Under the pieces are notes generated by a model, which had not been told where the DNA came from, ran no database searches, and saw only the letters and a list, made by a program, of their open reading frames with translations. A stretch of DNA of 61,377 nucleotides, filler included, from Hausera hauseri (taxonomy: Eukaryota): the NCBI GenBank assembly GCA_046269625.1. It is 11 parts of 11 records of this genome, joined end to end, with 100 filler letters (N's around TTAATTAATTAA, not from the genome) between each part and the next. Parts side by side here need not be neighbours in the genome. Positions count along the whole stretch, not along the records: positions 24,657 to 28,841 come from JBJURY010714103.1; 10 more parts are not named here. One strand, given 5' to 3'. Shown piece by piece: positions 24,657 to 28,841 of this stretch. The first letter of the stretch is position 1. Each line of letters starts with the position of its first letter. Made by a program: the position numbers and the translations under genes.

Positions 24657-25612
24657 CCGAAATAGGAAATTTATACTGGCCCTGTGTGCTCCAATCCCCC
24701 TACTTTCCAAGGAGAATTCCTTTACTAGTCTACAAAAGATCAACCAAAAAGAGCTCACAAGAAATTATATCTCACATGTCCCTGTTTATTAAACATTAAT
24801 GTTAACAACGTACCACGGACAGATAGCTTTTCTAAACCGCCTGATGTAGACGAGGATACTGATTATGATACGACAGTACCAATACGAATGATGTACTCAA
24901 CGGATAATGCAGTGGAAGAGAACTTATATCTAATTTCAAATACAGTACAAAAGCAAAAATTAACCTACAAAGGCGACAAGAATTTCGAACATCTAGCCAA
25001 CAAGGGCTAATATTAATATTAAAGGGTGAAGAGAAATATTTAAAATGTACAATATGCTTAAAGGAAACTTATTTACTGGAAAATATTGACCAGCGATGTC
25101 TAAGCATACTGCATACTATTAAATGTGATTATTCAATATGTGAAGCCCTCGAGAGTCACACTAATAGATGATGTCGAATACAATTCGATATGGGAAATCT
25201 TTATACAAATTACCAACACAGTCCAGTGGCCGTGTCAATACTAACCCGACACCCTACAAAACGCGAAAACATACTACAATATATTAAATATCGAACAGAG
25301 ACTTAACCAGACTGGTCTCTAAGTGTGTTCGAACTGCTTCTGAATCTGAAATTTATTCCCTCAGAGGAAGAAAAAGAACCAGAACAAAATATTCTTAATG
25401 AACTTTACTTACGCAATTTGTAGTGTACAATTTGCCACGCAAACTCAGTGCAAGTTATCCTTTTGCCTTGAAGTCATTTGAAAACATGTGAGAAATGCTC
25501 AAATCGAACAGTGAATTGACCAGTTTGCAGACGTCACATAGAAAGAAGGATAACATGCTTCCAATTCCCAGAAATAAACAGCGAGAATATCCCTACTTCA
25601 AATGAACACTAA
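24657..25612 (+). pseudogene. Intronless IAP-like gene (BIR, BIR-like, RING), disrupted
   Basis: YTGP...LY*STKDQPKRAHKKLYLTCP.LLNINVNNVP (BIR C-terminal H-x6-CP); QKQKLTY...EHLANKG...LKCTIC...H...C; RING CTICHANSVQVILLP*SHLKTCEKC....*PVCRRHI at 25424-25560. Confidence 0.75.
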
Positions 25613-25712
25613 CTGATAGATTAGTGTGGATTTGATTTGAATAAATAAATATTCATATGTATATGTATATGATTCTCTTAGATAACTATTTATTGTAATA
25701 AATTGAACAAAT

Positions 25713-26248
25713 TTGTTTACAGAATTATTGGATGCCAATAGTATGACTCTGACTAACCTCGATAAGAGGATAATCCAGTTATTAACTATAAAGAAGCAAC
25801 CTCCTAAAATAGTTTACGGATGGTACAGACTATATAACAACCCTCTACTTATTAGGGTAATGGAACTAGGGTACTTCAAATACTTGACGATGGTTGCTAT
25901 AAAAACCATGAGAAAACCGAATATGAAGCATTACTAACAGTGATTACCAACATATATGAAATACAGTTGATGCATGATGACTGTTACCATAGAGTCCAAT
26001 GTTTGACTTCGAGATTAAAAGAAAAAGCAGAAGAAGTAGAAGAAAGATGTACAGATATTAGTCTTACAATTTGGACCTGCTTGATTTGCAGGAAAAGCCA
26101 GTCAAATACGATTCACCTAACATGCGGACACATTATTCATTGTAAAGGTTGTGTAGCTAAACATCCTATGTTATTGAAATGTACTCTATGTAAGTTACCC
26201 ATAGAAGATACTTGTATCATATACATAATAAAATGGATAGTAACTTAG
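25713..26248 (+). pseudogene. Second IAP-type gene: UBA-like segment + C-terminal RING
   Basis: NPLLIRVMELGY (cIAP UBA-like), then CLICRKSQSNTIHLTCGHIIHCKGCV....KCTLCKLPIEDTCIIY; frameshift between the parts. Confidence 0.7.
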
Positions 26249-26499
26249 TCTGTTTTAATAAAAATAGCGCAGGGACATCAATACAATACTCGATCCCGAG
26301 AGCGATTAACACAAAATCAATTGACTGTAATTGATGAAGTATATTCAAACAAATAAAACACTAGTCCCACTAATAGCTCAGATGCTCTAAGTACAGCATC
26401 AGCCCCAGAATCATTACTCGACATCGATCCAATACAATTATCTCCCGTTCTAATACAACATCATTGGACACGAGGGGTCAATGGATGACAAAGACCATC

Positions 26500-28841
26500 T
26501 CGAGGTCAATACCGCAATGCATCTAACTCAGGAATTAAAATGTAGAACACGTTACTAAGTACATCAGGTAAATATAGATGATCTAAGAATAAGACAGAAT
26601 CATACGGAAGGGAACATCCGGCAGTTAATTAGACATATACAAGATATACTCCGACAGAGAGGAGACGACACAGTAGAAATAAGCACCATAAATAATGGTA
26701 TGAGACTGGATAGAGTCGAAGAAAGAACTATATAACTAGAACAAAAGTAAATTATAACGTCACAAGTTTAAATGGACTCGAGGAAGGAACTGATCAAAGA
26801 ATAAAAAATATAGATGCCCATACTAGACAAATACATAATTTACAACAGCAAACTATTGAAAATGTAGCCGCAATACATAGAAATAGGGAACGGATCGATA
26901 ATAATGAAAGACAAGCGAATCAAAGGTTAAATGGAATGTAAAATCAAGTAGCAATTATAGTATGCGAACAAGCACAGATACAAGCAGAACACAACCTTAC
27001 CATAGATCAGATCGATGTTCTAGCCAGAGACACTAACTAACTGAACGAACGTCTCGAAGAAGTAAGGACAGAAGAATTGATAACCCGACTCAATGGACGA
27101 CTAGAATATGTGCAGTCACCAGAACTTTCAGCGGAACTAAGTTCCACACCTTGTAAAACCCCGTACACCGATAGTAACAACATGGAGCCACTATGGAATA
27201 ATCGAGAGCCGCTGGCTCAGCATGGTGAGTGTAACTGTGGTATGCAAAGGGATATAAATAACAATGTCGGTTATGACCCACCAAATCTTAATGAAAGAAG
27301 GAGAGAAGAGAAGTAACCAATGCTCTCTCACCTTGAGCCATACAAAGGACGATTATCAGACTTAGAGGATTTTTAGACGAATACGATTCGCTAGCAACAG
27401 TCATGCATTTGGATGATGCAAAGAAATTATCCGTTTTACCAGTGCATGTGAATAATAATCTGAGAATGGAAATAACACGCATACCTAGACATATGGACGA
27501 AAATTGGGCTCAACATCGAGAAAGAATTTTACAAAACCAACAGGTTAACATACAAGAAAACCGATATCTAAAATTTCAAAACTGTAAAAAGAAACCAAAT
27601 GAAGAAGTTTTAACATACATCAGTAGATTTAAAACCGCAATGAATAGATATTTCGGTTTGAACGCACAAGCCTTTGGGGCTATGATCATGAAGCAATTTG
27701 TATTTTGACTTTTACCGCCTTTATGAAAAAGAGTCAAATTCCATACAGCGAATAATTTTAACGAGCTGATAAAATATACCCGACGAATGGCGAATCGAAT
27801 AGATGAAACATCTCTCTGGACTAATCAGACGCAGATGGCAGCAGTAGCCACTCCACCTTTGTTAGTAAGACCAGATGTAACAAATAGTAGCAATTCACCT
27901 TGGAGGAATCCGTCGAGAAGCCAAAGCCCTAATCGACAGGACGGTAATATACCAGGGAATTCAATACTCCAGAAAGAGGAAATTATAACCAATCACCGAA
28001 AGACTAAAACAACAATCAAAGAGATACATCATATCAAAGAAATAGAGGGTACTATGATGATCGGCAACGGAACCATACAAGATACTTTGGATCACGAGAT
28101 TACTCGAGAGAGAGAGAGAAATAACAACAGAATCCGATTTCCTAGTAGAGAAAAGTACAGTAATGATCTAAATCACAATCGTTATGATAACAGAAATAAT
28201 CAAGTGAACTCATATTATAGACGAGATGACAGCCGAACACGATATCCAATTAATGGGCCTGGAAACTGAGAACCAACTATCCCAACGACAGGCGAAGTGA
28301 AAGCTTCCAGAGGTTTAGAAGAGATGACAGCCGAGAACAATATAGTAACTTAAACGGAAATGATAGCAAAGAAAGAGATAACCGACGAGGTGATAGCAGA
28401 GACATATATAATTCTGGAAATGATTCAAAAATGGAAATTATGACAGAAGACGTCACTATATCCCACTTCGACGAGAATTGCATAGATATAATAGAAATCC
28501 CAGTCAATATCCTCAAAGAGATCAAAACCGAGCCCCTTCTCCTAGACCAAACAATAATAATGACAGATATACTCGATTATCCGACTATAATTCCAGATGA
28601 AATGCGTTGCCGTCATATAGAAACACTTCCCCATCCAGATAGGATAGAAATGCCTCACCAAACTATCCTAAATACTCCAATGAAAGAAAATTGGACTCAA
28701 CAATACCATCTTGTAATAGCTCCACAAAATAAAGACGAAACTCCTCGGATAATAGGAAAAGTAATAGCGTCGAAAGGAGCTCAGGAACTTTCAACGAACA
28801 AATTATATCAGCCTTTATGGCACTACTAATGACGAAACCAA
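26500..28841 (+). pseudogene. LTR retrotransposon gag (coiled coil, capsid domain, R/D/N/S-rich tail)
   Basis: Heptad-rich region 26560-27130; GFLDEYDSLATVMHLDDAKKLSVLP and FQNCKKKPNEEVLTYISRF (Q..GE.V..Y..RF-like MHR), QFVF*LLP; low-complexity tail. Confidence 0.7.

Follow-up and report, generated by a model that had tools for sequence, protein, structure and literature searches.

Decayed IAP-like RING genes immediately upstream of a gypsy-type gag in a many-copy repeat of Hausera hauseri

Introduction

Whole inhibitor-of-apoptosis (IAP) genes are a counter-defence of large DNA viruses. Among retroelements, the literature searched reports BIR cargo only for planarian Burro, where it takes the form of motifs with a putative function. 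Burro/GYPSM1 elements are giant gypsy-like long terminal repeat (LTR) retrotransposons; PMC6431247 describes BIR, BCL2-like, MATH, ankyrin and ubiquitin-like motifs, an env between gag and pol, two to three CCHC knuckles in gag, and accessory open reading frames (ORFs) that may be upstream. Here, we describe a contig at 24657-28841 of a 61,377-nucleotide stretch of Hausera hauseri DNA (GCA_046269625.1; the window), in which two decayed IAP-like genes, each with a RING, precede a decayed gag.

Captured ORFs are also found in other LTR elements. As far as excerpts of the two papers extend, plant LTR elements carry additional ORFs (aORFs), sometimes upstream of gag-pol (PMC7264820), and the bdelloid elements Juno and Vesta carry an ORF3 (PMC5408684). 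These share with the present locus the capture of extra ORFs inside LTR elements, but the ORFs in those excerpts are exonucleases, esterases, env or of unknown kind, lie mostly 3' of pol, and include no IAP. The excerpts of PMC5408684, PMC7264820, PMC10309623, PMC8532177 and PMC13524379 describe no IAP ORF upstream of gag, and the literature search found no report of separate IAP ORFs in this position; Grohme et al. 2018, outside this coverage, may map such ORFs in Burro. The layout of separate IAP ORFs upstream of gag may be new; BIR cargo itself is known from Burro, and the novelty could be lower. In the consulted part of PMC13159474, intronless IAP expansions are documented, and RING IAPs are lost in the flatworms sampled.

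An IAP cassette upstream of gag

The contig carries gene 1, gene 2 and gag in this order, in tight succession on the + strand, decayed in parallel and present in many diverged copies. It probably represents the internal 5' portion of one decayed copy of a large Ty3/gypsy-type LTR retroelement that occurs in high copy number and bears an IAP cassette. Both IAP-like genes probably lie inside the element because the spacer between gene 2 and gag is only 15 nt, the copies are diverged, IAP and gag probably co-occur in a second lineage, and decay runs in parallel. The same observations support an earlier note on this DNA in so far as it proposed an LTR retroelement with genes for IAP-like E3 ligases.

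The window joins 11 short repeat-rich contigs by artificial linkers, and neighbouring contigs have no physical linkage. Its Maverick-type polymerase pieces and gypsy remnants indicate an invertebrate animal as host. Positions 24657-28841 are one 4185-bp contig, bounded by N44-TTAATTAATTAA-N44 linkers, that ends inside gene 1 at its 5' side and inside gag at its 3' side. The placement of all genes on the gag strand of one contig, as the earlier note had it, is confirmed by a Pfam scan (six frames, stops read as X) and by mapping of P0002, an intact gag homolog. Rfam and tRNA scans gave no match. An alternative genetic code is ruled out: all three stop types are present, and the intact homologs are uninterrupted when translated with the standard code. 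This copy is dead, a pseudogene throughout.

Gene 1

Gene 1 (24657..25612, +; stop codon at 25610-25612) is a decayed IAP-like gene whose 5' end is cut by the contig start. It is a true IAP homolog with the order BIR1, shortened BIR-like unit, UBA-like bundle and IAP-type RING. By tblastn, the intact 403-aa proteins P0003 and P0152 align to 24711-25007 at 43% and to 24950-25603 at 49%; P0001 (252 aa) is a further intact relative, 46% identical. Over 24711-25603 the match to P0003/P0152 consists of two segments with one frame switch and a 1-residue gap, and is otherwise colinear with these single-ORF homologs, which bears out, for gene 1, the intronless structure claimed earlier.

In the window, only the C-terminal half of BIR1 aligns (24711..24785, +), within the 43% segment to P0003; it includes the H-x6-C end and has a type I pattern. 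The window sequence gives no Pfam BIR match of its own, either in the ten sequences scanned or in two short 5' frames. In P0003, BIR1 stands above the Pfam cut-off (27 bits against 22.9), and in an AlphaFold model it is predicted to match the BIRs of XIAP, cIAP and DIAP1 with Z of 9.2-9.3. Judged through this intact homolog, gene 1 has at least one C2HC BIR, as expected of the IAP (BIRC) family.

The second unit (BIR2; 24950..25135, +, with the frame switch near 25000) is a shortened BIR-like zinc-binding unit with the spacing CxxC-x18-H-x3-C instead of the canonical CxxC-x16-H-x6-C of a second BIR. This spacing is kept in the window translation and in P0001, P0003, P0152 and P0004, with x19 in P0092. 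On a custom BIR profile it scores at most about 1 bit in P0001, P0003 and P0004, below thresholds, and the corresponding region of the structure model is of low confidence. A language-model search with the RING removed gives, as a lead only, ten top family matches that all belong to the BIR family or its clan, the best scoring 0.85. Relatives that are 26-49% identical keep the RING and each of the four BIR2 ligands. The unit may be a BIR variant overlooked by current profiles. Of the two BIR-like motifs reported earlier, the first stands through P0003, and the second is non-canonical and falls below BIR profile thresholds.

Between BIR2 and the RING lies a UBA-like three-helix region (25184..25355, +; approximate bounds taken from P0003 residues 262-319) that the earlier BIR-BIR-RING description had missed. 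The gene 1 family profile aligns weakly to the UBA region of cIAP1, in the segment that carries MGF, at a conditional E of 6.5e-7 and an independent E of 0.11. The P0003 model has a predicted local distance difference test (pLDDT) score of 67-88 in the blocks covering 271-320, and its predicted match to the XIAP UBA reaches only Z 3.7.

The C-terminal RING (RING 1; 25424..25531, +) is an IAP-type C3HC4 RING interrupted by stop codons (Pfam PF13920, zf-C3HC4_3, E 3.6e-7). The best solved-structure matches of P0001 are the RINGs of cIAP1, cIAP2 and XIAP. In a RING tree of 45 rows and 72 columns, with bootstrap values not settled and P0152 and P0153 omitted as near-duplicates, gene 1 groups with P0001 and P0003 (98/92), apart from host-type IAPs in this short alignment. 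The tree resolves only this clade and names no donor. Four more distant proteins, P0004, P0009, P0092 and P0097, have the BIR, shortened BIR, UBA-like and RING layout in whole or in part; they may be cargo of related elements.

Gene 1 compares with two known classes of IAP. It shares the BIR fold (Z 9.2-9.3 in the P0003 model), a putative UBA-like bundle and the C-terminal IAP-type RING with the cellular RING IAPs cIAP1/2, XIAP and DIAP1/2, but differs from them in being intronless, many-copy and linked to gag, in the type I pattern of BIR1, in the H-x3-C instead of H-x6-C of BIR2, and in having no evident type II BIR. With the viral IAPs of baculoviruses (IAP3), nudiviruses, ostreid herpesvirus and entomopoxviruses it shares a compact, intronless BIR-BIR-RING on a selfish replicon; unlike them it is probably retroelement-borne and has a UBA-like region, and the identity is only 14-27%.

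Gene 2 and the spacers

Gene 2 (25743..26248, +) is a decayed gene with a possible UBA-like motif, a coiled segment and a RING, and has a frame switch near 25910. RING 2 (26078..26191, +) lies in an open frame and matches PF13920 at E 4.1e-8, so that both RINGs reported earlier are present; its hhalign probability against the gene 1 family RING is 87%, and the RING tree does not settle its position. Neither Pfam nor the custom profile gives any BIR signal in gene 2. The UBA-like motif has no Pfam match. On a profile of eight sequences hand-picked by motif, hence a weak test, it scores 6.5 bits when the frame break is read as X, a value that none of 500 control sites reaches; without the frame read-through it ranks third of 3060 windows, which is not significant. 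The earlier assignment of a UBA-like/RING gene therefore holds for the RING, with a weak UBA. None of three candidates from a word-based search of proteins of 71-228 aa is a gene 2 homolog. Gene 2 is probably a BIR-less IAP derivative.

The AT-rich spacer from gene 1 to gene 2 occupies 25613..25742 (+), with the start of gene 2 uncertain; the interval 25571-25745 has 25% GC and four AATAAA motifs. From the stop of gene 2 to the codon aligned with gag residue 1, the spacer is 26249..26263 (+), 15 nt read directly from the sequence. Neither spacer contains a motif resembling a primer-binding site (PBS) or a poly-A run, and the contig contains no LTR-like repeat. Because this second spacer is 15 nt, no LTR or primer site fits between gene 2 and gag. 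The IAP-like genes are thus immediately upstream of gag, as the earlier note had stated, and neither an LTR nor a PBS-like site separates them from it.

Gag

The third gene (26264..28841, +) is a decayed gag polyprotein that runs off the contig end. Its layout comprises an N-terminal region, a coiled coil, a Retrotrans_gag capsid at about 27350-27900 and an R/D/N/S-rich region. Residues 1-886 of the intact P0002 (1339 aa) align to 26264-28828, with residue 1 at 26264; identity is 37-51% over several frames and 64-66% in the capsid part. The Retrotrans_gag match is weak (E 0.016 in the window, E 7.6e-4 in P0002, both below the curated cut-off) but consistent, and identifies a capsid of the Ty3/gypsy type. 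Neither P0002 nor any of the three + frames of 26264-28841 has a CCHC knuckle.

Decay is similar in the two parts of the contig, in identity and in stop density, as the earlier note had observed: 6 in-frame stops occur in 320 aligned columns of gene 1, and 12 in 852 columns of gag, counted over five main segments with overlapping low-complexity segments excluded.

After gag, the P0002 frame stays open through a further stretch of about 450 aa that is not gag. Its residues of about 900-1339, beyond the end of the window contig, contain a duplicated unit (self-match E 1e-5). A guess that this unit is a DEDD exonuclease is unsupported: the single-sequence model reaches a pLDDT of 34, and a fold search gives nothing beyond generic matches, at Z of at most 6.3. 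Atlas leads for the duplicated region point to a viral glycoprotein, all below 0.9. No BIR, MATH, ankyrin or BCL2-like match occurs in the 1339 aa of P0002. The search for gag homologs covered proteins of 330-2000 aa, a range in which a giant full-length polyprotein could not appear.

Copies and linkage

The contig is a many-copy, diverged repeat. In run X1, 7367 contigs map to it and cover 30 of 30 bins: 260 at 99% identity or more, 798 at 95-99%, 2511 at 90-95% and 3798 below 90%, so that 6309 of the 7367 are less than 95% identical to this copy. Among the variant sites listed (the best 40 of 1448), eight lie in the IAP part, each with 11-77 contigs. Many diverged copies thus include the IAP part, and single-copy host retrocopies, which the earlier note had named as the alternative, do not describe the locus. 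Two diverged X1 contigs (records 2 and 3) span gene 1 to gene 2. The variant rows at 26209, 26301 and 26302 have 84-108 letters to the contig end, which suggests contigs that cross the junction of gene 2 and gag.

Co-occurrence of IAP and gag elsewhere, proposed earlier as a check, is probable in a second lineage. P0152 (IAP) and P0002 (gag) are each encoded on a single 6828-bp ENA contig, and the window layout would require 5880 nt. The ENA contig that encodes P0003 has 15,990 bp.

Several points weigh against placing the IAP-like genes in a retroelement. That P0152 and P0002 probably lie on one contig is deduced solely from the equal 6828-bp size. None of the X1 pieces listed (8 of 7425) explicitly spans the junction of gene 2 and gag, and X1 depth is lower over the IAP part (298-1994) than over the gag part (554-10042); X1 may be the source sample, and its depth is not copy number. 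Within the contig, gag stands without an LTR, protease or pol, and a D[ST]G motif is absent from the 1339 aa of P0002. Six of the nine AATAAA motifs of the contig cluster behind the IAP-like genes, as fits separately terminated genes, although the spacers are very AT-rich. Viral contigs gave no locus with P0002, P0001 or pieces of RNase H and env as queries, prokaryote genome contigs gave no related locus, and no long locus related to 24657-28841 emerged from the viral, metagenome and prokaryote contigs searched. Two metagenome loci at 25-29% identity were dropped, as their ORFs are unrelated gag-pol elements without IAP.

A separate contig with env and pol

A separate contig of the window (40184..52223, -) encodes env, protease, reverse transcriptase, RNase H, integrase and extra ORFs with a decayed RING. 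Its Pfam matches are Monjiviricetes_fusion (E 5e-24), RVP, RVT_1, RT_RNaseH, Integrase_H2C2 and rve. The env, a mononegavirus-type fusion protein (49947-51269, -), is upstream of the protease. Behind the integrase come extra ORFs over some 4 kb, among them one of 312 aa (43970-44905, -) whose C-terminal segment is hydrophobic, and the decayed RING at 41512-41592 (-). Before env, at about 51968-52222, the sequence has a ubiquitin-like look by eye only, with no Pfam support.

Tentatively, this contig could come from the 3' part of an element of the kind seen at 24657-28841. The link is plausible because env precedes the protease, as in Burro, but we rate it as somewhat less likely than not. AT skew of 0.31 in 24657-28841 and 0.23 in 40184-52223 gives both contigs A-rich coding strands, a weak hint; P0002 has no significant similarity in 40184-52223.

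Other sequences in the window

Maverick/Polinton-type remnants are present at 331-999, 16975-17802 (DNA_pol_B_2 matches), 56585-57769, 19064-20035, 59645-60605, 21365-22289 and 38816-39712, and have related copies on other window contigs at about 83-92% identity. Positions 21869-22420 and 39163-39615, which have no Pfam match, we take to be capsid-like. Ordinary decayed gypsy pol fragments lie at 9500-11400 (+) and 31450-34300 (-), with an integrase core at 31729-32220 (E 5.5e-14); positions 31141-31270 and 35172-35301 form a direct repeat of 130 nt. At the start of one contig (28942-29030), 89 nt are shared at 97% with the end of another (39995-40083); the two contigs may overlap or be adjacent copies.

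Several decayed ORFs at 35985-38660 (-) have no significant Pfam match; part of this region presumably resembles the N-terminus of Penelope-type retroelements. A 272-aa open frame at 55368-56183 (-), with repeated RxSS[VL]P motifs, is probably a host exon; it has no Pfam match, and we assume a resemblance to muscle proteins. A 268-aa host-like frame at 13356-14159 (-), probably exons, has no significant Pfam match and presumably resembles a cephalotoxin-like family. The CpG observed/expected ratio is 0.80-1.22 in all 11 window contigs; the window repeats therefore show no strong CpG depletion.

Relation to Burro and alternative origins

The statement in the earlier note that BIR domains occur in Burro is borne out by PMC6431247, where the BIR lies inside the ORF1 polyprotein. 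In our analysis the present locus would resemble Burro cargo in kind: both have a gypsy-type gag with BIR and ubiquitin- or apoptosis-related cargo, and high copy number; upstream accessory ORFs occur in Burro; and 40184-52223, which is unlinked to the gag of 24657-28841, has env before protease. The differences are that a complete stand-alone ORF with BIR, BIR-like, UBA-like and RING units and a second RING ORF lie upstream of gag here, in place of an ORF1 motif; that this gag has an R/D/N/S-rich region and no CCHC knuckle; and that P0002 is without BIR, MATH, ankyrin and BCL2-like motifs over its 1339 aa, with the rest of the polyprotein beyond that. We do not file the locus as Burro, from which the description of that family would set it apart, because the CCHC feature is lacking and a complete IAP is a separate upstream ORF.

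The most far-reaching reading is of an undescribed giant env-bearing lineage, like an endogenous retrovirus, apart from Burro and possibly non-planarian, with a DNA-virus-like array of stand-alone IAP-derived E3 ligases before gag that would silence host death or immune signalling and include a new, selected class of shortened zinc-binding BIRs, and with 40184-52223 as the 3' half of such an element. This combination is possible, if doubtful.

Membership in Burro itself would be compatible with element-borne IAP genes and is not exclusive of them. On this account, the contig is part of an ordinary Burro-family element, the IAP ORFs are its BIR/RING accessory genes, and 40184-52223 shows a more 3' stretch of such an element. 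The BIR of Burro, its env between gag and pol, its ubiquitin-like domain before env and its possible upstream accessory ORFs all agree with this, as do the env before the protease in 40184-52223, with its ubiquitin-like stretch seen by eye, and the A-rich coding strands of both contigs. Burro gag, however, has two to three CCHC knuckles, and BIR is among its ORF1 motifs; here the knuckles are absent, P0002 has no BIR, and the ubiquitin-like stretch lacks Pfam support. We regard ordinary Burro membership as rather unlikely.

An origin of the IAP pair in a large DNA virus or a Maverick/Polinton array, with fusion to a gag-only, non-autonomous or pol-less element, is improbable. BIR-BIR-RING is typical of invertebrate DNA viruses, fold matches include ostreid herpesvirus and baculovirus IAPs, and compact ORFs with short AT-rich spacers recall viral arrays; Maverick-type pieces are abundant in other contigs of the window, and no pol is linked to this gag. 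The fold matches are, however, generic at 14-27% identity, the family profile aligns to the layout of UBA-containing cellular IAPs, no IMG/VR relative was found, and the roughly 450 aa that follow gag in frame in P0002 are as in a long polyprotein.

A host origin of the IAP genes, as retrocopies or as a tandem pair without introns that happens to lie beside an unrelated gypsy fragment, is very improbable. In its favour, invertebrates commonly have intronless and tandem IAP duplicates, oyster IAP loci can contain retroposition domains (both from excerpts of PMC13159474 and PMC8917759), and AATAAA motifs stand behind each gene. Against it, 15 nt are too short for an LTR, there is no poly-A tail, tens of diverged contigs cover IAP sites, IAP and gag are probably paired again in a lineage whose proteins differ by 35-55%, and gene 1 groups with P0001 and P0003 rather than with host-type IAPs in the short RING alignment.

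Predicted activity of the encoded proteins

The excerpts of PMC8917759 distinguish type II BIRs, which bind caspases and IAP-binding motif (IBM) peptides, from type I BIRs, which bind TRAF or TAB1; the types are separated by positions 76 and 80, with E or Q at 76 and W or H at 80, by the zinc-binding histidine, in type II. BIR1 has A76/L80 in the window and I76/L80 in P0003 and P0152; the distant relative P0004 retains E76, and E or Q is found at 76 in 20 of 35 other BIR cores. BIR1 thus lacks the residues of the caspase- and IBM-binding groove, and no type II BIR is evident in gene 1. The anti-apoptotic role assigned to the genes earlier is unproven because BIR1 has a type I pattern, and direct caspase inhibition by the gene 1 product appears less likely from these residues.

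The type I pattern is the basis for proposing ligases that retarget host signalling and defence proteins. An ancestor element would have captured a host-type IAP mRNA (BIR-BIR-UBA-RING), which would persist as a separate accessory ORF before gag; between the two stands a further RING ORF, itself probably derived from an IAP but without a BIR. IAP RINGs are E3 ubiquitin ligases (PMC7290580, in part), and the intact proteins are predicted to be RING E3 ubiquitin ligases encoded by the element, in which BIR1, of type I, and the shortened BIR2 would serve as substrate or adaptor modules. Provided that the genes belong to the element, the prospects are about even that these ligases would dampen host innate-immune or cell-death signalling through TRAF/TAB-type partners, and would not block caspases through the IBM groove. 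Protection from cell death would be a likely but indirect outcome in cells expressing the element. As the third ORF, gag would presumably need a spliced, trans-spliced or internally initiated RNA.

The existence of intact natural homologs, P0003 and P0152, makes retroelement control of host ubiquitin and cell-death signalling directly testable. The finding also suggests that some of the intronless IAP expansions in invertebrate genomes are transposon cargo and not host genes.

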